Made by a program: the position numbers and the translations under genes. This document shows positions 8,251 to 41,500 of a stretch of 48,622 nucleotides of DNA, piece by piece. Position 1 is the first letter of the stretch. Each line of letters starts with the position of its first letter. Source of the DNA: Bacteroidota bacterium (lineage in GTDB: Bacteria > Bacteroidota > Rhodothermia > Rhodothermales > JBCCMF01); contig JBCCMF010000001.1 of the NCBI GenBank assembly GCA_039026435.1, forward strand, positions 1 through 48,622, given 5' to 3'. The notes beneath the pieces were generated by a model that worked only from the letters and a program-made list of their open reading frames with translations, ran no database searches and was not told the origin of the DNA.

Positions 8251-8294
8251 TGTCATCCCTCGGCTCTGGCCTACGGCCGTCGCTCGGGATGACA
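8251..8294. repeat. 44-nt palindromic intergenic repeat (TGTCATCCC...GGGATGACA family, short form)
   Basis: 'tgtcatccctcggctctggcctacggccgtcgctcgggatgaca'. It has 9-bp terminal arms and lies between the two reductase paralogs. It is the same length as the copy at 9624..9667 and nearly the same sequence. Confidence 0.75.
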
Positions 8295-8329
8295 ACCAAA
8301 GACGTACGGGCACTTTTAAAACTGAATAG

Positions 8330-9559
8330 TTAAGCGGCCAGCAGACGCAGGTAGAACATAGGGGAAAGCAACCTGCGGCGCTCGCTCATATCGTCGAACA
8401 TACAACTAATCGTATCGGCGACCTCGGTGGAGCGCGACGCCTTGCGAATGAGGAAGTTGAGCAAGGTTGGCCACTGTGCCAGCCGCAGCAGCATCGTGCT
8501 GATCTTCAGCTCTTGCCGCAGGTCGGCCATGACGGCGTCGCCGTAGCCCTTGAGGTCGGCGGCGCTGGTGGCGCCGGTTTCGAGGGCGCGCTCGGCCCAC
8601 TCGGCGGCGTGGATGGCGCTGATCATGGCGTTGCCGATGCCCTCGCCCGTGAACGGGTCGATCAGGCTGGCAGCATCGCCCACCAGCATCCAGCCATCGC
8701 CCGCCATCGGGCGTGGCTTCGAGCCCAGCGGCAGCCCCCACCCTTTCATCGGGCCGATCCGCTCGGCATCGGCAAAGCGGTCGCGGAAGCGCGGGTGCGT
8801 CACGAGCTGATCCAGCAGCGGGCGCAGCTTCACGTTGTGCTTCTTCATCAGGTGGCTCACCATCCCCAGCCCCACGTTGGCGCGGCCATCGGGGAGTGGG
8901 AAGATCCAGAAGTAGCCGGGAATGACGACGTCGGCGAAGTGCAGCTCGATGGAGTTCATCTCATCGAAGCCCGTGACGCCCTCGTAGTAGGCGCGCATGG
9001 ACCCGGCGTAGTGCTTCTCGTCGAGCTGCGTCATGCCCAGGTCACGCACGACGACCGAGTAGGCGCCGTCGGCCCCGATGACGATGGGCGCATGGATCGT
9101 CTGGACCTGCTTCTCGCCCTTGCGCTGCACGGTGACGCCCGTGATGCGGTCGCCGTCCATGACCATGTTCTTGACCGTGGCCTCCTGCCACACCTCGGCG
9201 CCGCTGTCCACCGCCGCCTCGAACGTGACGCGGTCGAAAGTGAGGCGCGGGCAGACGTAGCCGGGCGGAATCGGCTGGGTGAAGTCCTTGGTGAACGGGA
9301 TGGTGACCTGATCGCCTGCCGGACTGCTGAAGGTGATGCCCCATGTGTCCAGCGGCTGCGCCAGCGGCATCTTGTCGATCACGCCGAGCGCCTTCAGGGC
9401 ATCGACGCTCTTGCCGCTGATGGCATCGCCACACACCTTGTCGCGGGGAAACCGCTGTTTGTCGAGCAGGAGCACGTTCACCCCGCGCCGGGCCAGCATC
9501 GCCGCCGCCGTCGCACCACCCGGGCCTGCGCCCACCACAATCACATCACGCTTCATCAT
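8330..9559 (-). CDS. Geranylgeranyl reductase-family FAD-dependent oxidoreductase (paralog 2)
   Basis: 409 aa. Collinear with paralog 1 at roughly 65% identity by eye, with the same motifs and an identical C-terminus 'SPMFYLRLLAA'. Confidence 0.8.
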   Translation of the reverse strand: MMKRDVIVVGAGPGGATAAAMLARRGVNVLLLDKQRFPRDKVCGDAISGKSVDALKALGVIDKMPLAQPLDTWGITFSSPAGDQVTIPFTKDFTQPIPPGYVCPRLTFDRVTFEAAVDSGAEVWQEATVKNMVMDGDRITGVTVQRKGEKQVQTIHAPIVIGADGAYSVVVRDLGMTQLDEKHYAGSMRAYYEGVTGFDEMNSIELHFADVVIPGYFWIFPLPDGRANVGLGMVSHLMKKHNVKLRPLLDQLVTHPRFRDRFADAERIGPMKGWGLPLGSKPRPMAGDGWMLVGDAASLIDPFTGEGIGNAMISAIHAAEWAERALETGATSAADLKGYGDAVMADLRQELKISTMLLRLAQWPTLLNFLIRKASRSTEVADTISCMFDDMSERRRLLSPMFYLRLLAA

Positions 9560-9623
9560 TCGGTCTCAGGTCAAAAGCCGGCTAATCGCATGCGAGTTCT
9601 GCGAGATAACTACGCCTCCAGGG

Positions 9624-9667
9624 TGTCATCCCTCGGCTACGGCCTGCGGCCTCTGCTCGGGATGACA
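9624..9667. repeat. 44-nt palindromic intergenic repeat (same family, short form)
   Basis: 'tgtcatccctcggctacggcctgcggcctctgctcgggatgaca'. Lies between the histidine kinase stop (9703) and the start of reductase paralog 2 (9559). Confidence 0.75.
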
Positions 9668-9702
9668 ATAGCGGAGGATATACTGCATTCTGGATAGTAG
9701 AG

Positions 9703-24223: not shown

Positions 24224-27175
24224 ATGCGCCGCCTCTCGTTGTACCTCACCGCCCTCCTGCTGCTCGCCTTCGGCTGTACCTCGTCGCAACGGGCGGCGCT
24301 GACCTACAGCACCGTCAACAACGGCGTCCAGGACCTCACGCTGCAAAACCCGCTGGAGGCTACGCAGACGCTCGACTACCTGACCGTGCCCGACGGGTTC
24401 GAGGTGCAGCTCTTCGCCGCCGAGCCCCACATCGTCAACCCCATTGCGCTGACGTGGGATGAGCGCGGCCGTCTCTGGGTGGTCGAGTCCACCAATTACC
24501 CGCACGACCACGTGGGCGAGGAGACGGGCACGGATCGCATCACGATCTGCGAAGACACCGATGGCGACGGCACCGCCGACCGCTTCATCCGCTTCGCCGA
24601 GAACCAGCCGCTCACGACTTCCATCGCGCTCACCAAAGACGGCGCGCTTGTGGGTCAGGCGCCCGACATCGTCCTGCTCACCGACACCGACGGCGACGAC
24701 CAGTACGACACCAAATCGGTGGTCATCGACGACGCCTTCGGCACGTGGGACACGCACGCGGTGATGAGCAACTTCAAGTACGGCATCGACAACCACATCT
24801 ACAGCGCCGTCGGCTACTCGGGCATGTACGAGCCCGGGCGCGTGGGCGAAGACGACGCCCGCACCCTCCGCCAGGGCGTCTTCCGCTTCGCAACGGACGG
24901 CAACGCCCTCGAACCCATCGCCGAGTTCAACAACAACACCTGGGGGCTGGGCATCGGCGAGGACAACACCATCTTCGGCTCCACGGCCAACAACAACCAC
25001 GCGGTCGTGGTGGGCATCCCGATGCGCTACGGGCTGGAGAAAAACGAGGCGAACGTGCAGAGCCACTACCTCGTGGAGCACACGGCCACCACGCCCCTGC
25101 AGCAGGTCGATTTCCGCGACGGGTACACGGCCGCGGCGGGCGCCTTCCCCTACACCGGGCGGCGCTACCCCCAGGCGTATTGGGGCGCGCTGATGGTGAA
25201 CGAGCCGACGGCGCACGTGGTGCACGCGGGCTACCTGGAGCGCGACGGCGCCATCTATAAGGAGACCGAGAACTCGATCGACAACCTGCTCTCCAGCGCC
25301 GACGACTGGGTGGCGCCCGTCTTTTCTGACATCGGCCCGGACGAGAATATCTGGGTCGCCGATTGGTACAACCCGGTCATCCAGCACAACCCGGATCGCC
25401 GTGGCATGCGCAACCAGGTCTGGAATGCCAATCGTGGCGAGGGCAACGCCCACCGCAACCCGCTGCGCGACCGCCAGCACGGCCGCGTCTATGTGGTGCG
25501 CTACACCGAGCGCGACGGCGACACCATCACCAGCCTCGACCCCGCCGACGGTGCCGACCTCATCCGAGGCCTGCAGAGCACCAACCAGTTCTGGCGGCTC
25601 ACGGCGCAGCGCCTCATCGTGGAGCACAACCACACCGACCTCGTACCGGATCTGCTCACGCTCGTCCAGAACACGGATCTCGACGCGCACGGCATGAACC
25701 CGGCGGCCGTGCACGCGCTGTGGACGCTGCACGGGCTGGGCACTATCGACGAGGCGATGGCAGACGTGACGACGGCGCTCGAACACCCCTGCGCGGCCGT
25801 CCGCAAAGCCGCCGTGCAGGTGCTGCCGAAGACCGCCGAGACGGGCGCTATCCTTCAGTCCAACAACCTCTTCGCCGACGCCAACCTCAACACCCGCCTT
25901 GCGGCGGTCCTCGCCGTGCACGACCTCGGCGACGCGGCAGATGACGCCCTCAAAGCCGCTACGCAAGCGGCGCTCCGTGGCGGCGACGCGTGGATCGAAG
26001 CCGCCGTAGAAGGCCTCGCCCCCGTTGCCAACACGCCGACCGTAGCGAGCACGCCCGCGCCCGAACTCGACACCGCTGCGCCGCCCCGCGCCGTGCTACC
26101 CCTCGATGTTGACCCACTGATGATGTCGTTCGCGCAGCCCACGATGCACGCCTTCGCCAACCAGCCCATCGACATCGTCTTCACCAACACCAACCCCGAC
26201 CGCCACAACGTACTCGTCCTCAAAGCCGACACCGATGTCGAGGCCTTCGGCCAAGCGCTCACGGGCTACATGACCGCCGATGACGCCTGGGACAACGCCT
26301 ACGTCCCGCCGTCGATGCGCGACCGTGTGCTCGCCGCCAGCACCGTCTTGGCCCCCGGCGACGTCGCAACGCTCAGCCTCGACGGGCTCCCAGCGGGCGA
26401 GTACACGTACATCTGCACGGTGCCCGGCCACTGGATGATGATGCAAGGCACGCTCGTGGTTGAAGACGCCGCCCCCGAGCTGGCACGCAACGATGCTGGG
26501 TGGTCGTGGCTGGCTGATGCGGTGGATGCCCCGTCGATCCTCTACCTCGCGGGCGCCGCCAGCCGCGACCGCCAATCGCATTGGCACTCGCGCGTCTTCG
26601 GCTTCGCCAGCGGGCAGGTGCTTTACGACAACGGCGCCCACGCGTACACCTACACCGAGTCCTCAGACGCCGCGTTCGTCGAGCAGTTGGCCGATGCCGA
26701 CCTGCTGGTGATGTCGAACAACAAGCCCGTGGAGGCGGCCGCGCAGGAGGCGATCTTCGCGCATGTGGAGGCGGGCAAGCCGCTGCTGCTCTCGCACCCG
26801 GCCACGTGGTACAACTGGAAGGACTGGCCGCGCTACAACGCCGAGCTTGTGGGCGGCGGGTCGCGGAGTCACGAGAACCTGCAAACGTTCAGCGTGGAGG
26901 TTGTGCAGCCCAACCACCCGCTGATGGAGGGCGTCCCGGCCTCGTTCGAGGTGTTCGACGAGCTCTACCGCGCCGAACTGTTGCCCGATGCCGACGCCGT
27001 GGTGCTGGCCATCGGCCGGTCGCACGAGACGGGCACGATCTACCCCGTCGTCTGGACGCGGCAGGTGGGCGAGGCCACGGTGGTGGTCAACACGCTGGGC
27101 CACGACGACCGCGTCCACAACCTCGTCACGTACAAGCGCATCCTAGCCAACACGCGCGACTGGCTGCTGCCGTAG
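24224..27175 (+). CDS. Multidomain lipoprotein: PVC-type membrane-bound dehydrogenase domain + HEAT repeats + azurin-like cupredoxin + ThuA domain
   Basis: The real start is ATG 24224 'MRRLSLYLTALLLLAFGC' (lipobox). 'PDGFEVQLFAAEPHIVNPIALTWDERGRLWVVES...CEDTDGDGTADR' marks the dehydrogenase domain. HEAT-like 'AVRKAAVQVL' follows. Type-1 copper ligands are 'DRHNVLVL' and 'YICTVPGHWMMMQG' (C-x4-H-x3-M). The C-terminal ThuA-like region reads 'LLLSHPATWYNWKDWPRYNAELVGGGSRSHE...VNTLGHD'. Confidence 0.75.
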   Translation: MRRLSLYLTALLLLAFGCTSSQRAALTYSTVNNGVQDLTLQNPLEATQTLDYLTVPDGFEVQLFAAEPHIVNPIALTWDERGRLWVVESTNYPHDHVGEETGTDRITICEDTDGDGTADRFIRFAENQPLTTSIALTKDGALVGQAPDIVLLTDTDGDDQYDTKSVVIDDAFGTWDTHAVMSNFKYGIDNHIYSAVGYSGMYEPGRVGEDDARTLRQGVFRFATDGNALEPIAEFNNNTWGLGIGEDNTIFGSTANNNHAVVVGIPMRYGLEKNEANVQSHYLVEHTATTPLQQVDFRDGYTAAAGAFPYTGRRYPQAYWGALMVNEPTAHVVHAGYLERDGAIYKETENSIDNLLSSADDWVAPVFSDIGPDENIWVADWYNPVIQHNPDRRGMRNQVWNANRGEGNAHRNPLRDRQHGRVYVVRYTERDGDTITSLDPADGADLIRGLQSTNQFWRLTAQRLIVEHNHTDLVPDLLTLVQNTDLDAHGMNPAAVHALWTLHGLGTIDEAMADVTTALEHPCAAVRKAAVQVLPKTAETGAILQSNNLFADANLNTRLAAVLAVHDLGDAADDALKAATQAALRGGDAWIEAAVEGLAPVANTPTVASTPAPELDTAAPPRAVLPLDVDPLMMSFAQPTMHAFANQPIDIVFTNTNPDRHNVLVLKADTDVEAFGQALTGYMTADDAWDNAYVPPSMRDRVLAASTVLAPGDVATLSLDGLPAGEYTYICTVPGHWMMMQGTLVVEDAAPELARNDAGWSWLADAVDAPSILYLAGAASRDRQSHWHSRVFGFASGQVLYDNGAHAYTYTESSDAAFVEQLADADLLVMSNNKPVEAAAQEAIFAHVEAGKPLLLSHPATWYNWKDWPRYNAELVGGGSRSHENLQTFSVEVVQPNHPLMEGVPASFEVFDELYRAELLPDADAVVLAIGRSHETGTIYPVVWTRQVGEATVVVNTLGHDDRVHNLVTYKRILANTRDWLLP

Positions 27176-27252
27176 CTCGCCATCGCTTCACTTGCATCGT
27201 GAGGACGTGGCGCTCATCTTGTGGAGACGCTCTACTTACCTCTCGCGCCTCC

Positions 27253-28842
27253 ATGACCGGACAGCAGTTCATCGCGGGCACCCGCACCGCCAGCAGCACC
27301 TCTACGTTCACCGCCACCAACCCGGCCACCACCAACCCGATAGCGCCCGCGTTTTACGAGGCCACCGCCGATGAGGTGGACCGCGCACTGACAGCCGCGT
27401 TCGAGGCGTTCCAGCTTACGCGCACGCTGCCGCCTGAGCGCACCGCCGCCTTCCTCGACGCCATCGCCGACGAGATCCTGGCGCTGGGCGATGACTTGAT
27501 CCATCGGGCCACGGCCGAGACGGGCCTGCCCAACGGCCGCTTCGTGGGCGAGCGCGGACGCACGGTGAACCAGCTGCGCCTCTTCGCCCAAGTCGTGCGC
27601 GAGGGATCGTGGGTAGACGCTCGCATCGACACGGCTCAGCCCGACCGCTCGCCGATCCCCAAGGCCGACATCCGGCTGATGAAGGTGGCGCTAGGTCCGG
27701 TGGTGGTCTTTGGCGCGAGCAACTTCCCGCTGGCGTTCTCCGTGGCGGGCGGCGACACCGCGTCGGCGCTGGCAGCAGGATGCCCGGTGGTGGTGAAGGC
27801 GCACCCGGCGCACCCGGGCACCTGCGAACTTGTGGCCGGGGCGATCACGCGGGCGGCGGAACGCACCGCGATGCCCGCAGGCGTGTTCTCGATGCTGCAC
27901 GGCCGGAGCCACGAGGTCGGGCTGGCGCTGGTAGAGCACGCGCGCACGGCGGCCGTCGGCTTCACGGGTTCGCTGCGCGGCGGACGAGCCCTCTTCGACG
28001 CCGCCAACCGTCGCGCCGTGCCCATTCCGGTCTTCGCCGAGATGGGCAGCACCAACCCTGTCTTCGTGCTGCCCGAAGCGCTCGCCGAACGTAGCAATGC
28101 GATCGCCCAGGGCTTGCTGCAGTCCGTCACGTTGGGCGTGGGGCAGTTTTGCACCAACCCCGGCCTCGTCGTCGGTCTGAGCGGCGCTGCCTTCGACGCG
28201 TTTGCTGAGGCGGTTGCCACACACGCCAAAGGCAGCGCGCCCGGCACGATGCTCCACGAAGGCATCCGCCACGGTTACGAGCAGAGCGTGGCGCACATGG
28301 CAAACACCACCGACGTCGCCGAGATCGCTCGTAGCACCACCGATGCCGATCCGCTGCGCACGGAGGCAGACGCCGCGTTCTTCCGCACCGATGCACACAC
28401 GTACGCCGAGCACCCGCACCTGCACGAGGAAGTCTTCGGCCCTGCCTCGCTGCTGGTCACCTGCGCTGATCGCAAGGCGATGCTCGACCTCGCCCGCAAC
28501 CTCGACGGCCACCTCACCGCCACCCTCCACGGTACGCCCGCCGATCTGGAGGCGCACCGCGACCTCATCGACATCCTCACACAGAACGTCGGCCGGCTCG
28601 TCATCAACGGCTTCCCGACGGGCGTCGAAGTGTGCCCGTCGATGCACCACGGCGGCCCCTACCCCGCCACCACGGACAGCCGCTTCACGTCAGTAGGCAC
28701 CGCAGCGATCCAGCGCTTTGTGCGGCCCATCTGCTACCAAAACCTGCCCGATAATTTGCTGCCTCCTGCCCTCCAAAACGCCAACTCGCTCGGCCTCTGG
28801 CGCCTCGTGGACAACGCGATGACGCAAGAAGATATCATGTAG
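27253..28842 (+). CDS. NADP-dependent aldehyde dehydrogenase (alpha-ketoglutaric semialdehyde dehydrogenase-like)
   Basis: The real start is ATG 27253 'MTGQQFIAG'. 529 aa. Contains 'VVVFGASNFPLAFSVAGGDTASALAAGCPVVVKAHPAHPGT', catalytic Glu 'FAEMGSTNP' and catalytic Cys 'GVGQFCTNPG'. Confidence 0.85.
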   Translation: MTGQQFIAGTRTASSTSTFTATNPATTNPIAPAFYEATADEVDRALTAAFEAFQLTRTLPPERTAAFLDAIADEILALGDDLIHRATAETGLPNGRFVGERGRTVNQLRLFAQVVREGSWVDARIDTAQPDRSPIPKADIRLMKVALGPVVVFGASNFPLAFSVAGGDTASALAAGCPVVVKAHPAHPGTCELVAGAITRAAERTAMPAGVFSMLHGRSHEVGLALVEHARTAAVGFTGSLRGGRALFDAANRRAVPIPVFAEMGSTNPVFVLPEALAERSNAIAQGLLQSVTLGVGQFCTNPGLVVGLSGAAFDAFAEAVATHAKGSAPGTMLHEGIRHGYEQSVAHMANTTDVAEIARSTTDADPLRTEADAAFFRTDAHTYAEHPHLHEEVFGPASLLVTCADRKAMLDLARNLDGHLTATLHGTPADLEAHRDLIDILTQNVGRLVINGFPTGVEVCPSMHHGGPYPATTDSRFTSVGTAAIQRFVRPICYQNLPDNLLPPALQNANSLGLWRLVDNAMTQEDIM

Positions 28843-28863
28843 GCCCTGAGGATAAATTGCTCC

Positions 28864-29244
28864 ATGGACACACTACCTCTCCCGAGTTCTGCCTCGTTCA
28901 CCAGAGAGTTCTGCCTCCACCTGGCCGTCCAAGTTGGCAATGCCCTTACTGCATCTAATCGTGATGATTTGAGGGGCTTCTGGTGCGATGGGATTCTCCA
29001 CCATCCCGTGATTGATCGGCAATTGAGCAAGAAAAGTGTAAACGATACGCGGCAGATTCAGACCACGGCTTGGCTTGGCAAGACGGGTCAAGATGTTTAT
29101 GTGATGACGATCCACTTCGGCAAGTATGCGCTTCGTCGGTATGCCCGAGGCACGAGCATGCTTGATTGTATCCCAGCCTATGAGACTAGGGGCTGGCTCA
29201 TCGTCGAACCAAGTGAGAAGACAGTCCAAGTCTTTCTGCTTTGA
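28864..29244 (+). CDS. Hypothetical ORF inside the low-GC insert (coding strand unresolved)
   Basis: A 126-aa ORF fits exactly inside the insert. An in-register antisense ORF (28873..29301, with a possible TTG start near 29222) is also open and has an HTH-like stretch 'ASGIPTKRILAEVDRHHINILTRL'. Neither frame matches a family I can name with confidence. Confidence 0.25.
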   Translation: MDTLPLPSSASFTREFCLHLAVQVGNALTASNRDDLRGFWCDGILHHPVIDRQLSKKSVNDTRQIQTTAWLGKTGQDVYVMTIHFGKYALRRYARGTSMLDCIPAYETRGWLIVEPSEKTVQVFLL

Positions 29245-29249
29245 GTTAC

Positions 29250-29308
29250 CGCTCGGCCTCTGGCGGCTGGTGGATAATAGCATGACGCAAGGCGCTGTCA
29301 CAAACTAG
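29250..29308 (+). pseudogene. Orphaned, diverged copy of the aldehyde dehydrogenase 3' end (probable original gene end)
   Basis: 29250..29291 matches 28787..28828 at 35/42 positions. It reads 'LGLWRLVDNSMTQGAVTN*' versus the live end 'LGLWRLVDNAMTQEDIM*'. Its TAG (29306..29308) overlaps the stop of the convergent add gene. Confidence 0.6.
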
Positions 29309-30842: not shown

Positions 30843-32384
30843 ATGACCGTACCTACGTTTGCCGACGCCCGCACGGCGTTGCAGCAGCACGAGACCAGTT
30901 GCACCGCGCTGGTCTCGTCTTTTTTGGACGCTATCCACGCTCGCAACGAGGCGCTGAACGCGTTCGTCGCCGTTCACGATGAGAACGCGTTGGCGCAAGC
31001 GCAAGCCGTAGACGTCGCGTTGGCCGAGGGTACCGACCTGCCGCTGGCGGGCATGGTGATGGGCTTGAAGGACGTGCTCTGTGTCAAGGGCGAACAGGTG
31101 GCGTGCGCCTCGCGCATCCTGCAAGGCTTCGAGTCGCTGTTCGATGCTACCGCCATCCGACGGCTGCGCGACGCGGGCGCCGTCTTCGTCGGCACCACCA
31201 ACTGCGACGAGTTCGCGATGGGGTCGTCCAACGAGAACTCGGTCTACGGCCCCGCACGCAACCCCGCCAACCTGGACTACGTGACGGGCGGATCGTCGGG
31301 CGGGTCAGCCGCCGCCGTGGCCGCAGGACTGTGCCACACGAGCCTGGGCAGCGACACGGGCGGGTCGGTGCGGCAGCCCGCCGCGTTCTGCGGCACCGTC
31401 GGGCTCAAGCCCACCTACGGGCGGGTCAGCCGCTACGGATTGGTCGCCTATGCGTCGTCGTGCGATGTCATCGGCCCGTTTGGCCACACCGTATCAGATG
31501 TGGCGGATGTGCTCCAGGTCATCGCGGGTCACGACCCGTCCGATGCCACCAGCGCCAACGTGCCCGTGCCGAACTACCGCGCCGCGCTGAGCGAGTCCGT
31601 GGCGGGTCTCAAGATTGGCTTGCCGGATGAATACTTCGGCGACGGCTTGGACGCGGATATCCGCGCCGCCATCGACGAGCAGGTGAAGCGGCTGGAGGCG
31701 GCGGGCGCCTCGGTGCAGCGCGTCTCGCTGCCGCACACGTCGTATGGCATCGCCACGTACTACATCATCACGACCGCCGAGGCGTCGAGCAACCTCGCCC
31801 GCTACGACGGCATCCGCTACGGCTACCGCGCCGACCTCGCCACCATCCGCAACGACCTGGCTACCGAGCGCCGCACGCTGCAAGAAGGCATCGCCGAAGC
31901 CGACGCGCACGGCAACGCCCTCGTGGCCGAGGCGCTGGAGAAGCAGCTCGCCCAACAAGACTCGGTCCTCCGCCGCCTCTACACCGACACACGCACCCAG
32001 GGCTTCGGTGCTGAGGTCAAGCGCCGCATCATGCTGGGCACGTACGTCCTCTCCTCCGGCTACTACGACGCGTACTACGCCAAGGCCCAGCGCGTGCGGC
32101 GGCTCATCAAGCAAGACTACGACCGCGCCTTCGCGCAGGTCGATGTGCTCATCACCCCCGCCACGCCCACGCCTGCGTTTAAGATCGGCAGCATCGTAGA
32201 CGACCCGCTGACGATGTACCTCAACGACATCTACACCGTCACCGCCAACCTCGCCGGCGTCCCCGGCCTCGTCGTGCCCATCGGCACGCATCCCGCAGGG
32301 CTCCCGATGGGCCTCCAACTGCTTGGTCCGCACTTCGGCGAAGAGCGGCTGCTTACAGTGGGCCAACAGGTCATGCAGGGCTAA
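30843..32384 (+). CDS. gatA: Asp/Glu-tRNA amidotransferase subunit A
   Basis: 513 aa. Has the amidase signature '[36 protein letters not shown]' and 'KDVLCVKG'. Confidence 0.93.
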
Positions 32385-32385
32385 C

Positions 32386-33249
32386 ATGGCCTACATTCTT
32401 TTCCTCGACGAGAGCGGACAAGACCGCAAAGACTCACCCTATGAGGTACTGGCTGGCGTCGCCATCGAAGATCGCGACCTGTGGAGTTTGACGCGTAGCA
32501 TTCAGGATGCTGAGATCAAACATTTTGGACAGCGCTACTCGCTTGACCGCAGTGAACTCAAGGGAAGCAAATTGCTCAAGCGCAAAACATTCAGGCAAGC
32601 TCGCCAAATGCAAGCTATTCCTGATGAGCGGCGACGCTTATGCGCGAGTCGATGCCTTACATATGGTGCTACAGCGACACGAGAGCAAATCACGGCACTA
32701 GCTCAGGCCAAACTCGCCTATGTAACTGAGGTTTTTGATGTCTGCCAACGCTTTCGCGTTAAGGCCTTCGCAAGCATCACCTCTCAAGATGCAGACCGAC
32801 CTTCCTCACCGCTGTTTCTGCGGAAGGATTACGCTTACTTGTTTGAGCGCTTCTATTACTTCCTCGACGATTTACGCCCTTCTCCGATGGGCCTTGTGGT
32901 CTTCGATGAGTTGGAGCGAAGCCAGAGCCATTTGCTCCTGACGCAGATGGATCACTACTTCAAACGCACCCAGAACGGACAGACACGCTCGTCGCTCATC
33001 ATACCCGAGCCGCTCTTTGTCCATAGCGACCTCACTACAGGGGTTCAGGTAGCCGATCTTGTTGCCTACGTCATCAGTTGGGGCTTCCGCATCGCACGGA
33101 TGAGCATGCCTGCCCGAGAGGAGTTGGCCACCTACGCAGATCAGGTCGCGGCTATGCGCCATCGCGCTGTGCGTAGTGTGGGAGATCGCGACGACTTTGT
33201 CGTCTGGAGCTTTGCATACCTTGAGGATTTGACGACAAGCAGCACCTGA
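32386..33249 (+). CDS. DUF3800 domain protein (unknown function), low-GC accessory gene
   Basis: The real start is ATG 32386, 1 nt after the gatA stop. 287 aa. N-terminal 'YILFLDESG' and C-terminal 'TGVQVADLVAYVI' are the hallmark motifs I associate with DUF3800. GC is visibly lower than in the neighbours. Confidence 0.7.
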   Translation: MAYILFLDESGQDRKDSPYEVLAGVAIEDRDLWSLTRSIQDAEIKHFGQRYSLDRSELKGSKLLKRKTFRQARQMQAIPDERRRLCASRCLTYGATATREQITALAQAKLAYVTEVFDVCQRFRVKAFASITSQDADRPSSPLFLRKDYAYLFERFYYFLDDLRPSPMGLVVFDELERSQSHLLLTQMDHYFKRTQNGQTRSSLIIPEPLFVHSDLTTGVQVADLVAYVISWGFRIARMSMPAREELATYADQVAAMRHRAVRSVGDRDDFVVWSFAYLEDLTTSST

Positions 33250-33367
33250 AATAAAAAAGGCAATGCACCGCCGAAGCGGCACAAAGCCTCCATCGCGGTC
33301 AATAGCCTCACTAGAGTGTTTGTTCCGCTGGATAATGTGGCCTAGACGCCAGAGCAATAACACGTTC

Positions 33368-33526
33368 TCAGCGCTGCCAGGTACCCGGGAGTTCGGTGGC
33401 AAGAACGATGCGCAAATCCAGCGCTTTGCCGACAGTGATCACGGTGATGACCTGGTCGTAGTTGACCTTCTTACCGCCCCGCGCATCATCAATGGCTGTC
33501 AGCAGGTCAGCCGCGAGGGTGAGCGT
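33368..33526 (-). pseudogene. Diverged 3' fragment of an exbD/tolR allele
   Basis: The minus strand reads '*TLTLAADLLTAIDDARGGKKVNYDQVITVITVGKALDLRIVLATELPGTWQR*'. This parallels the last ~55 aa of the intact ExbD at 33824..34240, with an internal deletion of about 9 aa. It has no N-terminal part. Confidence 0.65.
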
Positions 33527-33530
33527 TCAG

Positions 33531-33566
33531 CTACTCACGGTGGGGCAACAGGTCATGTAGGGCTAA
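33531..33566 (+). pseudogene. 36-nt relic of a gatA 3' end
   Basis: 'ctactcacggtggggcaacaggtcatgtagggctaa' versus gatA 32349..32384 'ctgcttacagtgggccaacaggtcatgcagggctaa'. They match at 31/36 positions; four differences are synonymous and one changes CAG to TAG. Confidence 0.65.
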
Positions 33567-33763
33567 CGGATGCCGGGGATTGCACATTCGAGGCAAGCTC
33601 GAATATCCTCAGGCGTCAAGTGTTGATGCTCCGCCAAGATGCCATCAACAGACTCTCCGTGTGATAGCAAACCAAGGACATAGTCAACGGTGAGGCGCGT
33701 GCCTTGGATGACGGGCTTGCCTGCCATGATGGCTGGTTCAGCCGTGATGCGCGCTAAATTCAG
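33563..33763 (-). CDS. DUF433 domain protein (small, antitoxin-like); absent from the ORF track
   Basis: The minus strand reads '(LNLA)RITAEPAIMAGKPVIQGTRLTVDYVLGLLSHGESVDGILAEHQHLTPEDIRACLECAIPGIR*'. 'GKPVIQGTRLTV' plus '..ILAEHQHLTPEDIRACLE' fits the DUF433 pattern. The only in-frame ATG is at 33727 (54 aa). The ATG at 33767 is one nucleotide out of frame. Confidence 0.55.
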   Translation of the reverse strand: MNLARITAEPAIMAGKPVIQGTRLTVDYVLGLLSHGESVDGILAEHQHLTPEDIRACLECAIPGIR

Positions 33764-33823
33764 TCATGGCTTCGCCCGGGTCAATGGGTGACGTGGCCTA
33801 CCCCTGGCGGCACCAACAAGTTC

Positions 33824-34240
33824 TCAGCGCTGCCGCGTGCCCGGCAGTTCGGTGGCGAGGACGATGCGCAGCTCCAGCGCTTTGCCGATGCTCATGACGT
33901 TGACGACCTGGCCGTAGTTGGCTTCCATGTCGCCGCGGACGATGAGCGAGGCGCTCTCGCCCCGGGCCTCGTCGATGGCCATCAGCAGGTCGGGGGCGGG
34001 GGTGGGCGTTTGGTTGACGAAGTAGCGGCCGTCGTTGGTGATGGTCACCGTCACGGACTGGCTCTCGACGGGGGGCACCGACTCCACGCGCGGCAGGTTG
34101 ACCTCCACGCCGAACTGCGGGATGAAGCTGGAGGTGAGCAGGAAGAAGATCAGCAGCAGCAGCACGATGTCGGTCAGCCCTGCCATGCTGAACATGTCGA
34201 GCCGCTTGCGCGAGGTGGTGAAGTTGATGTCGTTGTTCAT
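33824..34240 (-). CDS. Biopolymer transport protein ExbD/TolR
   Basis: 138 aa. 'MAGLTDIVLLLLIFFLLTSSF' is the conserved TM with Asp, and the periplasmic domain is typical of ExbD/TolR. Confidence 0.85.
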   Translation of the reverse strand: MNNDINFTTSRKRLDMFSMAGLTDIVLLLLIFFLLTSSFIPQFGVEVNLPRVESVPPVESQSVTVTITNDGRYFVNQTPTPAPDLLMAIDEARGESASLIVRGDMEANYGQVVNVMSIGKALELRIVLATELPGTRQR

Positions 34241-34288
34241 GCCAGACGCCTCCGTTGATCGCGTGAATGCCGAACCGCCGTGCGCCGC

Positions 34289-35011
34289 CTAGCGGCGTGA
34301 CGCGGGCGAGGGCGCTTGGAGGAGGTCGATGAAGTCGGCGGTGGCGCGTTCCATCTCGGAGAGCATGCGCTGGATGCGCCCCAGCAGGAAGTTGTACGCG
34401 AAGAAGGCGAGGATGCCTGTGATGAGGCCGAAGGCGGTGGTGAGCAGCGCCTCCCAGATGCCGCCGGCCAGCACGCTGGGGTCCACGTTGCCCTGCAGGC
34501 GCTGGATGTCCTGGAAGGCTTCAATCATGCCCGTTACCGTCCCAAAAAACCCGAGCATGGGCGCCACGCCCGCGATGGTGGCCAGCGTGCCCGTGCGCTT
34601 CTCCAGCCGGAACGCCTCGCTCTTGCCCTCCGCGTTGAGCGCTTCCTTGATCTCGGCGATAGGCCGCCCCAGCCGCTCCAGGCCGCGCTTGAGGATGCGG
34701 GTGAGCGGCTTGTCCTGCGCCTCGCAGTAGGCCACCGCCCCGCCGATGTCGCCACTGGTGACGTAGGCGCGCACGCGTTCGGTGATCCCTTCGGTGTTGC
34801 CGTGCGCGCTGCGCAGCGTGAACAGCCGCTCGATGAACACGGCGATGGTCCACAGCGAGAGCACGGCGATGGGGATCATCACCCAGCCGCCTTGCATCAC
34901 CGTTTCGACAAAGCCCATGAAGCCTTCGGGCTCTGCTGCGGCCACCGTGGCCAGGCTGTCGGTGGGCAGCGTGAGGGAGTCCGCGTCTTGAAAGAGCATG
35001 GCAAACGTCAT
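34289..35011 (-). CDS. MotA/TolQ/ExbB proton-channel protein
   Basis: 240 aa with three TM segments. 'LATIAGVAPMLGFFGTVTGMIEAF' and 'GGIWEALLTTAFGLITGI' match the ExbB/TolQ family. Confidence 0.85.
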   Translation of the reverse strand: MTFAMLFQDADSLTLPTDSLATVAAAEPEGFMGFVETVMQGGWVMIPIAVLSLWTIAVFIERLFTLRSAHGNTEGITERVRAYVTSGDIGGAVAYCEAQDKPLTRILKRGLERLGRPIAEIKEALNAEGKSEAFRLEKRTGTLATIAGVAPMLGFFGTVTGMIEAFQDIQRLQGNVDPSVLAGGIWEALLTTAFGLITGILAFFAYNFLLGRIQRMLSEMERATADFIDLLQAPSPASRR

Positions 35012-35021
35012 ACAGATAGCG

Positions 35022-36542
35022 TTAAAGCGAGAGGTTAGTCAGGTCCATACGGGTGCCCACGCGCATCACCCAGGCGCCCTCGGGCAGCTTGTCGATCTCC
35101 GAGCGGAGCGCCTGGGACGCCTCGCCATCGGTCGCAAATTGCCCGACGACAGCACGGTAGCGCGTGAAGCCCATGTGCGTGCCGAATACCACGCCCGTGC
35201 GGTAGCCCAGGGCCACAAACGGCCGGGCGAGCCGCTCCGCCTGCCCCGCCGACTCGGCCGAGCCCACGATGATGCCGTAGCCGCCTTTCTGGATAGGCAC
35301 GGTGCCGTACAAGGCGGGGTTGGCGCCCACGGGTACTGGTGGAGCCTGTGACGCGGGCGCCTCGGGCAACCCACCGATGGAGTCTGCAGCGGCGGTCGTC
35401 AGCGTGTCGGTGGCTGCGAGCGTGACGCTGGTGTCGGCAGGAGCAACGGGCACCGTCTGCGCAACGGGGGGCGGGGGTGCCGGGCGCGTGAACCACCATG
35501 CGAGCAAGGCGATGAGCAGCACGGCAAGCACGCCCCCCCCGAGCAGGATGAAGCGGCGGCGGTCGGGTTCGGGCTCCGGCTCGTAGCGCCTGCGCGCGGC
35601 ACGGCGGTCGGCTTGGAAGCCCTGCGGCACCTTCAGCGTGGGCGGCGGCGGGACGACAGCATCGGCGGGCGGAGCCTCCTCCGGTTCAGGCGGATCGGCA
35701 GGTACACCTTCGGTGGGCAGCGTCTCGGCCTCGGCGTCAGTAGGCGCTGTGGCCTGCAGTGTGGCCTCTAGCTCGGCCAGCGCATCCTCAAACGACTCGA
35801 CGGCCTCCGATGGCGGCGCAAACTCGGAGGGTGGCTCGGTGGGTTGGGAAGGCATGACCTCGGCCTCTGCCCAAGGCGGTGCGCTAGCAACGGGCGGATC
35901 GGCCGTTGGCGCCGCCTCAACACTAGGAGCCTCAGCAACGGGCTCAATGTCGGCTACCTCGCCAGCAGGAGGGAACGCCTCGGCATCGTCAAAAAGAGAG
36001 GCCTCTTCGGCTGCGGGTTCTTCTGGCGGCTCGGCGAGGCCAAAGAAGCGCTCCTCGTCACCACGGACGACCTGGAAGTCGGCCTCCTCGAAGGAAGAAG
36101 GGGGCGTAGGGCCCAACGGCGCAAACATCTCCTCATCGTCGGGCGGGGCCCAGTAGTCTTCGGTGAGGCTGGTGTCCATGCGGGGCTTGGGCGTGTCGGT
36201 GGCCAGCGGCACCTGCATCTCTTCGAAGACGAACCCGTCGTCCTCGCCGTACGGATGCTCGGGGTCGCTGGGGTTGACGGCAATGGGCTCCAGCCCCCCC
36301 AAGTCGGCGTTGATCAGCTTGTTCAGCTCGTCATCGGCCTGGAAAGCAAAGGCGCCGTCGGCGCTGAACGAGAAGGTACCCAGCCCGGGCATCTCTACCT
36401 GGCCATGCTCGCGGGCAGCGGCTTTCAACTGCCCTGCCCACTGCGCCAAGGCACGGTCGGCCTCGTTGGGCGGGATGCCCAAGCGGCGGGCGAGCAGTGC
36501 GGAGAGATCGGTGGGCATGGAGGGGCGGTACGGGTTAGACAT
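35022..36542 (-). CDS. Membrane protein with HU-CCDC81-like domain 2, acidic/Pro-rich linker, one TM and C-terminal SPOR domain
   Basis: The likely start is ATG 36542 'MSNPYRPSMPTDLSALLARRLGIPPNEADRAL...VEMPGLGTFSF' (HU-like). The TM is 'RRFILLGGGVLAVLLIALLAWWF', with Arg-rich sequence before it, so the N-terminus is predicted cytoplasmic. The C-terminal 'GGYGIIVGSAESAGQAERLARPFVALGYRTGVV...YRAVVGQFATDGEAS' is SPOR-like. Confidence 0.7.
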   Translation of the reverse strand: MSNPYRPSMPTDLSALLARRLGIPPNEADRALAQWAGQLKAAAREHGQVEMPGLGTFSFSADGAFAFQADDELNKLINADLGGLEPIAVNPSDPEHPYGEDDGFVFEEMQVPLATDTPKPRMDTSLTEDYWAPPDDEEMFAPLGPTPPSSFEEADFQVVRGDEERFFGLAEPPEEPAAEEASLFDDAEAFPPAGEVADIEPVAEAPSVEAAPTADPPVASAPPWAEAEVMPSQPTEPPSEFAPPSEAVESFEDALAELEATLQATAPTDAEAETLPTEGVPADPPEPEEAPPADAVVPPPPTLKVPQGFQADRRAARRRYEPEPEPDRRRFILLGGGVLAVLLIALLAWWFTRPAPPPPVAQTVPVAPADTSVTLAATDTLTTAAADSIGGLPEAPASQAPPVPVGANPALYGTVPIQKGGYGIIVGSAESAGQAERLARPFVALGYRTGVVFGTHMGFTRYRAVVGQFATDGEASQALRSEIDKLPEGAWVMRVGTRMDLTNLSL

Positions 36543-36729
36543 CGGGCGTGAAGCGGACCTGTTGCTGCGGGGGGCTGAGCACGTACTGATCGTTTTCGCC
36601 AGCGACGAACTGGCCGCTCTGCCGTTCAAGCGCGAAGGTGCCCAGGGTGGGCACCGCGACGGTGTTGCCCTGCATGAGCCCCTCGCGGATCAGGGCCACG
36701 ATGGTGGTAGAGATTTGGTTGGCGTCCAT
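36535..36729 (-). CDS. Small HU-CCDC81-like domain 1 protein (or the split N-terminus of the following gene)
   Basis: 64 aa. 'IVALIREGLMQGNTVAVPTLGTFALERQ...LSPPQQQVRFTPDV*' fits the first bacterial HU-CCDC81 domain. Its stop overlaps the next ATG by 8 nt (GATGTCTAA). Confidence 0.55.
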   Translation of the reverse strand: MDANQISTTIVALIREGLMQGNTVAVPTLGTFALERQSGQFVAGENDQYVLSPPQQQVRFTPDV

Positions 36730-36811
36730 ACCGCGTGGCGATTTTCTCGGATTTATTGATGGCCTAATCTACGCACGGGAGCCGTCACATCAACACGAAA
36801 ACTGGAGGAGG

Positions 36812-38542
36812 CTACCACCGAAAGCGCAGGCCGCCCGTGATGACAAACGGCGTGATCGGGTAGACGTCGTAGACGTTGAGCGCGTCGATGCTGAGGTTGC
36901 CGGCCTGCAGGAGCACGGCCATCGTGGGCGTGATGAGGTACGACGCCTCTACGTCGAGGTCGAAGAAGTCGCCCACGCGGAAGGTCTCGGCGCGGTCGCG
37001 GTAGCGGCGGCCTTGGAACGTAGAGCCGATCTGAAGCAGGCCCCGCTGACGGTCGAACATGTACGACAGCTGCGCGCGCACCTCGAACGGCGAGACGTAG
37101 GGCACCACCGTGTCGCCCTCGGTCAGGCGTGCCCGGCGCAGCACCGTGCTGAGGCGCCCGTAGATCCCGCGTGGCAGCGCCGCCGACACCTCGGCCCCGC
37201 CGTGGACGATGCTGGCGCGCTCGTACCGCGCCGCGATAAGCCCGACGAGTTCTCGCTCACCTGCGCCACCTGCCTCGAAGAAGCGGTAGTTAGGCGCGAG
37301 TTGGTAGCCTACGAAGCCCTTGATCCGCAACGCGCCCACGAAGACATCGGCGCCTGCTTCGGCATCGACGGTGCGGACGGTGGCTTCTAGCCGAGGGCGC
37401 GGCACCACGTAGGGGTTGACCTCCGTCATCTCGCGGAAGCTGTGCAGCGTAGCCGAGGGCAGTGTCTGCACGTAGACGCGAACCCCTTGCTGCGGGTAGA
37501 ACAGCACCTGTGCAATGGGCGCAAAGTACGGCCGGGCCTCTTCCTCGCCCGAGACGCCACGCGCGGTGGAGCGATCCGTCATAAACCGCCCGCCGAGGTT
37601 GACTTCGGTCTGCGGTGTCGGCCGGAAGCGCAGCATGCTACCTACACTCAATCCGGCAAAGCTGTTGTCGGGGATGACATCGTCGAGGCTGCTCGTGGCG
37701 AACTCGGCATCGGCGATGAAGGCGTTGGTGCCAAACGGCAGCGTCAGCGCGCCGTCAAGCTCGAAGCGCTGCTCGTCGTAGCTGATGTCGCTGAGGCTTG
37801 AGACGGGTGGTGTCGCCGTATCAATGGACGTGCCGCCAAACGCCGCCCGCACGGCGTACTGCGTCAGGGCCGAGGGCAACGCCCGCACGTAGAACGCGCC
37901 ACCGCCTGTGTTGAGGGTGCGCGTGGGCTCTTCAACGATGATTCCGCCCGTGGGGTTGGCGCCAAACAGGTTGAGCGCATGGCTGCCGAAGTCGCCCTCG
38001 ACGCCCCAGATGGCCGCCGTAGCCGTCTGCTCGTAGCCGAGGCGCCCGAAGAAGCGGTCGTACTGGTTGCGGCGGTCGGCGAAGGGCTGGTCGCCGCGCT
38101 GGCCGCGGTAGTCGGCTTCCAGGTTGAGGCGTCCGGCGAGACCTACGGGCAGGCCGACGTTGGCGCTGCCGAAGCGGTGCAGGTACGTGCCGAGTCCGCC
38201 ATCCACGGTACCCGTGAACGGTATGCGGTTGGCCAGCGACGACACCTCGGGCGGCTCCGGTGGCTGGAGCGGGCTCGGCGGCAGGTCGATGCTCTCCTGC
38301 TTGTAGCGCTCGATGAACGGCCGCCGTCCGGCGGGTATCTCGGTGATGCGCGGCGGCGGGTTGAAGCCCACCAGCGGCTGCCTGCGCAGCGACGGTAGGC
38401 TGATTTCGAGCTGCCCGCGAATCTCGACCTCGCGCGGGGCGATGTCGGGCAGGGCGGTGCGAGTGGTGTCTTGCGCCATGACGGCCGGGGCGCCACTTAC
38501 GAGCACGGCGAGCAAGACGCTGAGGATCGTGCGCATCATCAT
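36812..38542 (-). CDS. Putative outer-membrane beta-barrel protein
   Basis: The likely start is ATG 38542 'MMMRTILSVLLAVLVSGAPAVMAQ' (signal). The sequence has an alternating beta-strand-like pattern and a C-terminal aromatic residue, '...GGLRFRW*'. The start overlaps the upstream TPR gene stop (ATGA). No specific family recognised. Confidence 0.55.
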   Translation of the reverse strand: MMMRTILSVLLAVLVSGAPAVMAQDTTRTALPDIAPREVEIRGQLEISLPSLRRQPLVGFNPPPRITEIPAGRRPFIERYKQESIDLPPSPLQPPEPPEVSSLANRIPFTGTVDGGLGTYLHRFGSANVGLPVGLAGRLNLEADYRGQRGDQPFADRRNQYDRFFGRLGYEQTATAAIWGVEGDFGSHALNLFGANPTGGIIVEEPTRTLNTGGGAFYVRALPSALTQYAVRAAFGGTSIDTATPPVSSLSDISYDEQRFELDGALTLPFGTNAFIADAEFATSSLDDVIPDNSFAGLSVGSMLRFRPTPQTEVNLGGRFMTDRSTARGVSGEEEARPYFAPIAQVLFYPQQGVRVYVQTLPSATLHSFREMTEVNPYVVPRPRLEATVRTVDAEAGADVFVGALRIKGFVGYQLAPNYRFFEAGGAGERELVGLIAARYERASIVHGGAEVSAALPRGIYGRLSTVLRRARLTEGDTVVPYVSPFEVRAQLSYMFDRQRGLLQIGSTFQGRRYRDRAETFRVGDFFDLDVEASYLITPTMAVLLQAGNLSIDALNVYDVYPITPFVITGGLRFRW

Positions 38543-41500
38543 AGGTTCGCTTTCTCTTGCGTGGCGGTGTCGGCGTAGGGCGTGCCGCTGAATTCGTTCT
38601 CCACCTTCTCGTAGATGCGCTTGGCCTCGCCCGAGCGGCCCATCTGCACGAAGGCGCGGGCTTGCCCGAGGTAGCTCTGCGCGTTCCACTCGTAGAAGCT
38701 GCCGAACAGCGTGGCCATGCGGCTCCACGTCTCCACGGCGCCACTCGGGTTACCCGAGCGCAGCAACAGGTCGCCCAGGCGGTAGAGCGCTTCGGCGCCC
38801 TCGTCGTTGCGGTTGTTCTGCGCAATCGTCCGGTACAGCCGCGCCGCCTCGGTCGCCTCGCCCTGCCGTTCCTTGATGCGTGCCAAGCCTAGCACGGCGG
38901 GTGCCGTCTCGGGCGCATCTGGCGCGCGGTCGATGGCGTCTTGCAGGAGCCGCTCGGCCTCGTCGTTGCGGCCTTGCTGCATCAGCGCCAAGCCCTGGCC
39001 GTAGCGCGCCTGCGCAATGAGCAAGCCGTCCTCACCCGCCAGCGTCTCCATCTGCTGATACGCCTCCAGCGCCCGACGAGCATCGCCGCTGTCTAGGCTC
39101 ATGGCCCCCACGCGCCGCGCGGCCTCGGGCGCTCGTGGGCTCCCCTGGTAGGAGCGCAGCAGCTGGCGGAAGTACGAGGTCGCCTCCTGTTTTTGGTCGC
39201 GCTCCTCGAAGATCGAGCCCATGTAGAAGTACGCCTCGGGCAAGAGCGACGCATCGCCCGAGGAGCGGATGAACTGCTGGAGCGAGGCCAGCGCAGCATC
39301 CAACTGCCCCGTCTGGTACTGCACCTCGGCCTGGCGGAAGCGCAGCTGGTCCACGATGGGCGAGTCGGGGTTGGCGGTGGCGAACGAGTCGATGATGGCG
39401 GTGGTGCGCGCCTCGTCGTCCAAGATGATGAGTGCGTTCTGCATGCCCGTGATGGCGTCGGCCACGAAGGGGCTGCGCGGGAAGCGGTTGAGCACGCGCT
39501 GGTACGCCGTCACCGACGCATCGTACTGCCCCGCGTTGTACAGCGCATCGCCGATGCCGTACTGCGCCTTGGCGGCCAATCCGTCCTGCGGGTAGCGGCG
39601 GATGAGGTCTTCGTACGTCTCGACGGCTTGATCGAAGTCCTGGTTCTGGAAGTAGATGTAGCCGAGCTGGTACTGCGCCTCCTGCCGCCACTCGCTCCCT
39701 GGAAACTCCTCGAACAGGGTGCGGAACGTGGTGATGGCCGCCACGGCATCGCCCGCGTTGTAGTAGGCCTGTCCTGTCTGGTAGAGCGCGTAGTCGCCGC
39801 CCTGATTGCCCACGCGTTGGTACATGCGGATGGCGCGCGGATACTGCTTCAGCGCATAGTGGCTGTCGGCGATGCGGAGTTGGGCGTCGGTGCGGTACGG
39901 GACGTACTCGTTGCGCTCGTTGTAGGTGTCGAGGAAGCGGGTGAACTGGCGGATGGCGGTGTCGTAGCGGCTCTCGCGGAAGGCGACCCAGCCCAGCGCG
40001 TAGTGCGCGGCCGTCCGCTGCGCGCCGTCGGTGTAGGTGCGGAGGTACTCCGTGAACAGCCGCTCGGCGAGGTCCAGCTTGTCGAGCTGGTAGTAGCTCT
40101 CGGCGGCCCAGAACAGCGCGTCGGCGGCCTTGCGGGCGTTGGGCGACGCGCGGTGGAGGTTCTGAAACTCGGGCGCCGCCGCTACAAAGTCCTGGTTGCG
40201 GTACAGCAGCCACGCCTTCTGGAACGTGACCTCGTCCCGCAGCTCCTGCGGCGCCGCGTCCAAGTTGATGGCCCGGTCGAAGCTCTCAAACGCCGCGTCG
40301 AAGTCGCCGATGGCGATGTAGGTGTCGCCTTGGAGGCGGAGCGCTTCGCCCACGAACGGCGAGGTGCGGTAGGTGCGGACGAGCTGCGTGAACGCCTCGT
40401 TGGCCTCGCGCCAGCGCCGCAGCTCGTACAGCGTCACGCCCGCTTCGAACTGGGCCTCATCGGCCAAGACACCCTCGGGCCAGCCTTGCACCGCGCCTTG
40501 GAACAGGCCGAGTGCGGTTTGCAATTCGCCCGTGATCTTGCGGTTGACGCCTTCGTAGTACATCGCCTTGTGGGCCAGCTCGTCGGTCTCGTTCGGGTAG
40601 ACCTTCGCGAACTCGACGGCGGCCAGCTGATGCGCCTCGGCGTAGTAGTAATTCCAGGCGAGGCCGTAGAGGGCGCGGCGGTAGTACGGGCTGTTGGGGT
40701 TGCCTTCGGTGAAGCGACGATACTGGATGATGGCGTCGTCGGTGATGCGCAGCTGGTTGTACGACTCGGCCAGCAGGAACGTGGCCCGCTCGCGCCCGTC
40801 GGTGCCCAGCGTGGGCATGCGGCGGTTGATCTCCTCCACGGCGCGGCGGTAGTCGGCCAGCTCGTAGTAGACCTCGGCCAGCGCCAGCCCGATGTTGCGG
40901 GCATAGGGCGAGTCGGGGTAGCGGCTGGCGAGCACCTCGAACGAGCGCGCCGCGTCGTTATACCTGCCGAGGCGCACCTCGGTGAAGTCGATGGCGTACT
41001 GGGCCACGTCGGCGGTGGGCGCATAGCGGTAGTCGTTGGCCGCGCGCGTGAAGTAGCGCAGCGCCTCATCCGTCTGGTCCAGCAGCAGCGCCGACTCGCC
41101 CATCCAGTACAGCGCTTTCGCGGCGAGGTCGTAGGGCGGATCGTTCGCGAGCACCTCGTTCAACGTGGCGATGGCCTGCTGGGGCTGCTGCGTCTCGTAG
41201 AAATACTTGCCGAGGGCCAGCCGCGCCTCGAACGCGAGCGGATGTACCGGAAACTCGCGCTGGAACTGCCGGAAGAGCCGCACGGCAGCATCCGAGTCGC
41301 CTAGCGCGAGCGTGGCGTCGGCTTGGTAATAGAGCGCTTCGGCGGCGCTGGGGTGCTGCGGGTGATCGGTGCGGAAGGTGGCGAAGGCGTGGGCCGCCTG
41401 CGCGTAGACCTGCGTGGCGTACAACGTGTACGCATCGGCAAAGGCCTGCTCCGGCGTGGGATCCATCGCTTGCGCCCAAGCCCGTGTGGGCAGGCTGAGC

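Follow-up and report, generated by a model that had tools for sequence, protein, structure and literature searches.

How do two convergent housekeeping genes come to be separated by second, decayed copies of their own ends? The question is raised by the interval between gatA and exbD on contig JBCCMF010000001.1 of a Bacteroidota bacterium (assembly GCA_039026435.1). A stretch of 48,622 nucleotides (nt) of this contig, hereafter the window, was analyzed, and all coordinates refer to it unless another sequence is named. The 3' end of gatA is present twice (copies A and B), as is the 3' end of exbD (copies C and D), and the elements follow one another in the order A, DUF3800 gene, C, B, DUF433 remnant, D. 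We read the region as a single insertion slot that was frozen long ago in a partly diploid condition, with two versions of the slot lying head to tail. In the following, the two halves are first described and compared with the same slot in related genomes; the ways in which the second version may have been added are then weighed.

Anatomy of the gatA-exbD slot

A second copy of the final 36 nt of gatA (32349-32384) is present at 33531-33566; the two agree at 31 of 36 positions, one of the differences being a CAG to TAG change in copy B. This recurrence had been noticed in an initial annotation made from the letters alone; the match in fact widens to 38 nt at 87% identity. The best A-like 36-mer elsewhere in the 48.6-kb window agrees at no more than 22 of 36 positions, and 200 shuffles gave at most 24 of 36. 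The end of exbD, together with its downstream flank, likewise recurs in a diverged form interrupted by an indel, and the repeat reaches about 25 nt further into exbD than first described. Two blocks were aligned: 33354-33481 with 33810-33937 (80% over 128 nt, offset 456) and 33475-33527 with 33958-34010 (79% over 53 nt, offset 483). Because the offset shifts from 456 to 483, C carries a 27-nt in-frame deletion. With the flanks included, C and D are about 80% identical, and the translation of C ends in ...GKALDLRIVLATELPGTWQR followed by a stop.

C abuts B, as had been noted, with the joint at 33527/33530. The two nucleotides between them (CA) can be assigned to neither copy, and when the sequence is read against both registers at most 1 nt is shared at the joint. 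The interleaved order A-C-B-D is the one to be expected of two gatA-to-exbD copies of the slot joined head to tail. The content of guanine plus cytosine (GC) dips from about 0.67 to 0.52-0.58 over 32386-33790, which is the minimum of the window. Coordinates of all features are collected in Table 1.

Table 1. Features of the gatA-exbD slot, its neighbours and a second duplicated gene end (positions in the window; aa, amino acids; ORF, open reading frame).
Feature	Position	Strand	Description
gatA	30843-32384	+	513 aa, intact, amidase family; Pfam Amidase E = 3.8e-148; last 36 nt in copy A
Copy A	32348-32385	+	live gatA 3' end plus 1 nt
DUF3800 gene	32386-33249	+	287 aa, intact; Pfam PF12686 E = 1.3e-18
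Terminator-like hairpin and T run	33255-33283	- (exbD strand)	8-pair stem, then TTGCCTTTTT
Copy C	33329-33527	-	dead exbD 3' fragment; stop codon 33368-33370; 27-nt in-frame deletion; about 40 nt of flank
C|B joint	33528-33529		CA, fits neither register
Copy B	33530-33567	+	orphan gatA 3' end with CAG to TAG
DUF433 antitoxin remnant	33563-33767	-	Pfam PF04255 E = 3.2e-17
Copy D	33785-34010	-	live exbD 3' end plus downstream flank
exbD	33824-34240	-	138 aa, intact; Pfam ExbD E = 1e-21; 93% aa identity to L001
exbB	34289-35011	-	240 aa, intact; same operon, upstream of exbD; Pfam MotA_ExbB E = 2.1e-33
Aldehyde dehydrogenase	26581-28842	+	ORF
126-aa gene	28864-29244	+	intact; 240 homologues, no Pfam family

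The first half of the mosaic carries the DUF3800 gene, which starts 1 nt past the gatA stop. Its protein is full length when compared with a family of about 290 aa spread over many phyla. The gene looks foreign, judging by its GC content (0.54, against about 0.67 in the neighbouring genes) and by the 66% identity of the best match besides the window's own protein. The closest homologues are solitary genes in unrelated contexts, and no flanking repeats were found around those that were examined; the idea that DUF3800 is a self-mobile gene duplicating its own flanks was rejected on these grounds. The protein has no solved relative and no NCBIfam match, and PADLOC returned a single marginal match (PDC-M04A, E = 0.0015). 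One homologue, 65% identical, begins 1 nt after an upstream 96-aa ORF, as the window's gene does after gatA (L007 203-1858, L006 4001-5823); downstream of it lie two small ORFs (88 and 201 aa) with a mutual overlap of 4 nt, and this small neighbourhood may be a conserved one.

The spacer between the DUF3800 gene and C (33250-33330, minus strand) was also considered. Folding of 101 nt reproduced the strong terminator-like hairpin there (-33.1 kcal/mol, z = -2.3), with only about 45 nt of unique sequence ahead of the hairpin. Structured RNAs whose function is unknown, in at least 11 classes, have been reported beside DUF3800 genes, and several of these classes have a terminator behind them (PMC5737381). 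None of the DUF3800-associated motifs of Rfam was found: cmscan of 32000-34400 with E up to 5 gave only unrelated matches at chance level.

States of the slot in relatives and decay of its parts

The lineage is a sparsely sampled Rhodothermales-like genus, of which four genomes are known: the window, L001 (JBCDJT010000022), L004/L005 and L094 (BAAHRN010000003). Beyond these close relatives, ExbD homologues are at most 59% identical. A scan of genome contigs with ExbD yielded one close relative, and L094 was found via the member list of an ExbD cluster; looking up the window's own proteins for exact matches gave none. L094 is the outgroup, with 80-85% nt identity over gatA, exbD and exbB, compared to 87-92% within the clade formed by the others; for gatA alone, the window is 87% identical to L001 and 80.5% to L094. 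More distant relatives have no gatA beside exbD, and scans of metagenomes revealed no relative above 66% ExbB identity and, among those found, none with gatA adjoining exbD.

The slot is found in three states in the four genomes and is thus variable, in agreement with the cargo hotspot initially proposed. They are distributed as follows: in L094 the slot is empty and gatA and exbD overlap by 4 nt. In L001 and L004/L005, exbD is followed by a DUF433 gene (82 aa), a DUF5615 gene (PIN-like; 119 aa in L001) and the converging gatA, the L004 sequence ending about 62 codons into the DUF5615 gene. In the window the slot is the mosaic described above, and DUF3800 is present there in this genome only. 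The window is collinear with L001 up to 32365 and again over 33589-40257. D and the DUF433 remnant therefore represent the resident half, since they are contiguous with the L001 homology from 33589 onward.

In L001 the GatA protein ends in QAISQR, and the five final codons of the gene are very different there from those of the window (QQVMQG) and L094 (QQLMNG), which resemble each other. The L001 tail overlaps the stop of the DUF5615 gene (L001 7060-7110, compared with window 32354-32384 and L094 6414-6450). It looks as though insertion of the pair may have remodelled the gatA tail in the L001 lineage.

DUF433 and DUF5615 (PIN-like, Mut7-C-like) are taken here to form a type II toxin-antitoxin pair, DUF433 being the antitoxin; a literature search gave no paper on them as such a pair. 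In the window the DUF433 gene, initially annotated as cargo, is not intact. Its native ATG (33765-33767) no longer serves as a start, since 8 nt are deleted immediately behind it, following ATGACTGAA, and the frame is shifted; the residual ORF of 54 aa (33563-33727, minus strand) begins at an internal ATG. Alignment to L001 and L004 indicates that homology with the DUF433 of relatives stops at about 33590, some 20 codons before the normal end, and the DUF5615 toxin gene is absent from the slot, whereas L001 has both genes. The joint left by the deletion of the toxin lies at about 33568-33590 and is separate from the C|B joint. The ratio of non-synonymous to synonymous substitution rates (dN/dS) in the remnant is 0.09-0.12, and the changes specific to the window number 4, 3 and 12 at the first, second and third codon positions. 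By these figures, DUF433 was under constraint until recently. It is the decayed remnant of the clade's resident toxin-antitoxin locus and not a working module.

To what extent the redundant ends have decayed can be measured on C. It can be aligned with L001 and with L004/L005, both in the exbD end and in the flank downstream of it, and its flank is the stretch of about 40 nt that lies between exbD and DUF433 in slots of the toxin-antitoxin type. No alignment was obtained with the sequence downstream of exbD in L094, where the empty slot has no such flank. As C carries the flank of a toxin-antitoxin slot, it stems from this locus in the clade that bears the pair. Over the shared coding columns its identity is 0.778 to the window's D, 0.766 to L001 and 0.70 to both L004 and L094. 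Changes specific to C affect 28 of 199 aligned sites, 15 of them being GC-to-AT, and those in coding columns are spread evenly over the three codon positions (5, 8 and 6), whereas in the live lineages changes concentrate at third positions. This even spread indicates that C has been a pseudogene fragment for about 0.14 substitutions per site.

Two further comparisons bear on the age of the copies. Between C and D, dS is 0.60 and dN 0.18; between D and L001, dS is 0.54 and dN 0.065. By our rough calculation, a dS of about 0.3 would be expected if C had begun as a copy of D at the onset of decay. As for the gatA ends, over the first 17 nt B differs from L001 at 1 position and A at 3; A has two to three synonymous changes of its own in these 17 nt, and B retains the L001 state. 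A and B have the tail QQVMQG in common, and that of A resembles the tail of the outgroup L094, unlike that of L001. For annotation purposes, C, B and the DUF433 remnant should not be recorded as genes.

Origin of the second slot version

The reading that we put first, tentatively and with a little less than even confidence, is that a related lineage supplied a slot of the DUF3800 type, which came in through one homologous crossover plus a single illegitimate join. The ancestor of the genus would have had convergent gatA and exbD genes overlapping by 4 nt, the state kept in L094. Insertion of the DUF433/DUF5615 pair into the slot would have taken place at the base of the clade comprising the window, L001 and L004. 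In some lineage of this clade the foreign DUF3800 gene with its terminator would then have replaced the pair, about 40 nt of the exbD downstream flank being kept. The window's ancestor would next have received a fragment of this DUF3800 slot that began 38 nt ahead of the gatA stop and reached about 190 nt into exbD; its entry would have taken a single crossover, homologous or nearly so, and a single illegitimate join, which is C|B. Two routes may be envisaged for this step: single-crossover integration of a re-circularised fragment, or an anchor plus an illegitimate end, with the join upstream of the anchor end. Finally, the live genes would have remained intact, with A on gatA and D on exbD, while B gained its TAG, C its 27-nt deletion and some 14% of neutral change, and the resident pair lost its toxin gene and the start codon of its antitoxin. 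The anatomy, the three states of the slot, the neutral decay of C, the constraint on the DUF433 remnant and the foreign composition of the DUF3800 gene are observed; the donor lineage and the recombination route in this scheme are what we infer.

Import is weakly favoured because the C/D dS is about twice what the neutral branch of C predicts, because A has synonymous changes of its own where B retains the L001 state, and because instability is to be expected of a perfect 1.1-kb tandem repeat. The similarity of the C/D dS to that between D and L001, together with the even codon positions in C, fits a C whose divergence took place elsewhere, in a functional gene, and whose decay came later. A second slot of the window, described below, counts in the same direction: its arrangement is simply a gene end, a foreign gene and an orphan gene end, which a prior large tandem duplication explains poorly.

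Several observations weigh against import. In neither gatA nor exbD was a crossover point detected, the close references being 10-20% divergent. When gatA, exbD and exbB were compared with L001 by sliding windows and by maximum chi-square, no signal of use emerged, and the crossover inside gatA that had been postulated was not located. The sole change point lies in the last 31 nt of gatA, where comparison with L094 reveals a divergent, fast-evolving tail in L001; gatA is otherwise collinear with its relatives up to copy A (references 13-20% divergent). A DUF3800-only allele of the slot was not found in genome contigs, metagenome contigs or a set of 5.8 billion proteins, an absence that is weak evidence with only four genomes of the genus known. 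With 36 nt on the gatA side and about 200 nt on that of exbD, the repeats gave a crossover little homology to act on, and no microhomology is seen at C|B. The dS argument relies on about 40 synonymous sites and amounts, by a rough estimate, to 1.8 standard errors. Import also needs as many illegitimate events as does a history in which duplication came first. Of the two-allele reading made at the outset, the head-to-tail copies of the slot stand; DUF433, taken then for the cargo of one allele, is a decayed resident locus, and the DUF3800-only allele has not turned up in the collections searched.

The duplication-first history, which we consider rather unlikely, starts from an illegitimate exchange between sister chromosomes joining exbD at 34010 to gatA 38 nt before its end. 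The whole slot with its pair would be duplicated, neither gene being broken; DUF3800 and the terminator would later replace the pair on the gatA side, and the toxin would be lost on the exbD side. What is seen here, a unit repeated head to tail with a single novel joint, is what defines a tandem duplication. C is nearest to the window's own D, A and B have the same tail, and the numbers of changes specific to A and to B fit one age, of about 0.15 neutral substitutions per site; moreover, the donor allele required by import is not known. A tandem duplication should however be homologous over its full length, and the two units have no cargo homology at all, one containing DUF3800 and the terminator and the other the DUF433 remnant. 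A perfect 1.1-kb tandem repeat is expected to collapse by homologous recombination, in this case before a foreign gene could replace one copy. The C/D dS of 0.60, about twice the neutral-branch prediction, is weak evidence in the same sense, and the gene-end duplication of the second slot (28787-29300), which directly flanks a foreign gene, is poorly accounted for.

The presence of 38-nt direct repeats at a gene 3' end, 87% identical, the left one live and completing gatA and the right one orphaned, recalls a site-specific integrative element. A and B would in that case be attL and attR, the element having brought its own gatA end and its integrase having since been deleted. The foreign base composition of the cargo and the occurrence of another gene-end duplication around a foreign gene 3 kb away are consistent with such an element. 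We nevertheless hold it to be improbable: neither an integrase nor a recombinase is present in 32386-33790, where family matches are limited to DUF3800 and DUF433, and no tRNA gene is present in the window. The position of C, an exbD fragment from this very locus at the end of the element, would be unexplained; the two inserts have no common terminal motif or inverted repeat, and DUF3800 homologues elsewhere are without flanking repeats. A related possibility, that C and D are a target duplication around an insert composed of B and DUF433, was rejected, since in L001 too D, its flank and DUF433 form one uninterrupted stretch.

An assembly chimera, in which the slot alleles of two co-occurring strains were stitched in tandem by a metagenome assembler, is scarcely credible: the window appears to be a whole contig and its closest relatives are all metagenome-derived, but exact words common to the two halves reach 16 nt at most, with none at C|B, so that at the customary k of at least 21 a de Bruijn assembler would have had nothing to mis-join on, C and B are decayed (27-nt deletion, premature TAG, neutral changes biased from GC to AT) and not intact alleles of a second strain, and C ends in mid-gene.

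Some 3 kb upstream is the second slot (28787-29300). Here it is the aldehyde dehydrogenase gene whose 3' end (28787-28837) has a second copy, at 29250-29300, with 78% identity over 51 nt, and the repeats bracket an insert of 0.42 kb with a GC content of 0.51. The real gene in this insert is the plus-strand ORF of 126 aa; an ORF on the minus strand was rejected, as it has no homologues. The orphan aldehyde dehydrogenase end keeps the ancestral tail (MTQGAVTN before the stop), and its stop still overlaps that of adenosine deaminase, the convergent gene, by the 4 nt CTAG; in L001 and L094 this slot is empty, with the stops overlapping. Of the 42 nt that are repeated, 6 have changed in the orphan copy alone and none in the live copy alone, which amounts to about 15%, similar to C. 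The arrangement is a simple gene end, cargo, gene end, and is not interleaved. Comparison of the inserts of the two slots revealed no shared end motif and no terminal inverted repeats.

The second slot suggests that, in this lineage, convergent genes with overlapping ends have repeatedly received foreign genes between them, the end of the upstream gene being duplicated in the process. It is improbable, in our opinion, that the two duplications within 5 kb are the footprint of an undescribed, non-random insertion process and not independent accidents of recombination. Such a process could target overlapping convergent gene ends and duplicate tens of nucleotides (about 40 nt here) around a single foreign gene.

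Other features were observed in the window. The 535-aa protein encoded upstream of exbB has a middle part rich in proline and alanine (35300-36100) that is hypervariable with respect to L001 (53-69% identity, with indels), whereas its ends are 80-90% identical; its L094 counterpart has a weak Pfam match to the SPOR domain. Two tandem paralogues, at 6984-8225 and 8330-9559 (both on the minus strand; 413 and 409 aa, about 75% nt identity), resemble by eye FAD-dependent geranylgeranyl reductases. Upstream of each, on the high-coordinate side, is a 46-nt palindromic element, GTGTCATCCC...GGGATGACAA (8250-8295 and 9623-9668, 87% identical). The adjoining 406-aa ORF (5691-6911, minus strand) looks by eye like a transposase of the DDE/integrase-core type.

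Small foreign genes gather at a few slots between core genes, and the intermediates of their exchange are rarely preserved. The gatA-exbD locus has retained its two slot versions next to each other; the joint is intact, and the decay of the redundant ends can be measured. Together with the empty and pair-bearing states of the relatives, it is a concrete, datable example of cargo added between overlapping convergent genes, neither of which was broken, and it indicates that an antitoxin can outlive its toxin. Its value is that of a worked example, of a fossil intermediate, and of a caution to annotators, who have before them remnants and not genes.

Comparison with known recombination products

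The closest formal parallel is single-crossover integration of the Campbell type. As in that process, homologous ends are duplicated around incoming DNA, A/B and C/D are interleaved, and there is a single joint, C|B. The differences are that the event recorded here would be natural and ancient, that the homology is short and diverged (36 nt and about 200 nt), and that the circle itself is inferred; neither a donor molecule nor a donor allele was found in the collections searched. In one E. coli conjugation experiment, a single crossover with a re-circularised fragment duplicated the homologous end, and 56 of the 60 Lac- clones analysed were of this re-circularised type, with duplications of 109-950 bp (PMC3240628).

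Homology-facilitated illegitimate recombination is known from Streptococcus pneumoniae, Acinetobacter baylyi and Pseudomonas stutzeri. The slot resembles its products in that one end would be anchored in gatA and the other joined illegitimately, with foreign cargo beside a core gene. The usual product is nevertheless an insertion coupled to a deletion about as large, and 3-10 bp of microhomology are usually seen at the joint (PMC3240628), whereas here the gatA end is duplicated as B, no deletion accompanies the C|B joint and microhomology is lacking. As a specific route, this mechanism, which had been put forward at the outset, finds no support in the locus. The missing microhomology alone would not be disqualifying, since joint homology was also lacking in 3 of 4 E. 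coli clones formed in this way (PMC3240628).

In the type VI secretion clusters of Vibrio cholerae, a cargo-displacing insertion that keeps the orphan immunity gene has been proposed, and in these arrays, as in those formed by C-terminal displacement in Rhs genes, new cargo is placed beside a conserved upstream gene and the old protective gene and 3' fragments are kept downstream as orphans (PMC5361080). Those are loci of polymorphic toxins, in which the conserved gene itself bears the variable tip; at gatA/exbD, by contrast, two convergent housekeeping genes are involved, and fragments of both are duplicated and interleaved. Genomic islands inserted at gene 3' ends between attL and attR are also comparable, inasmuch as direct repeats of a gene end bracket cargo of foreign composition and leave the gene intact. 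They differ from the present locus, which has no integrase and an insert of only 1.1 kb that terminates in an exbD fragment of the same locus. With regard to the DUF433/DUF5615 module, an intact pair is present in the L001/L004 slot and a recognisable DUF433 is kept in the window, which differs in having no toxin gene and an antitoxin without start and C-terminus. The gatA-exbD locus is, on the whole, a natural and aged example of a known general kind, situated between two housekeeping genes, and not a new system.

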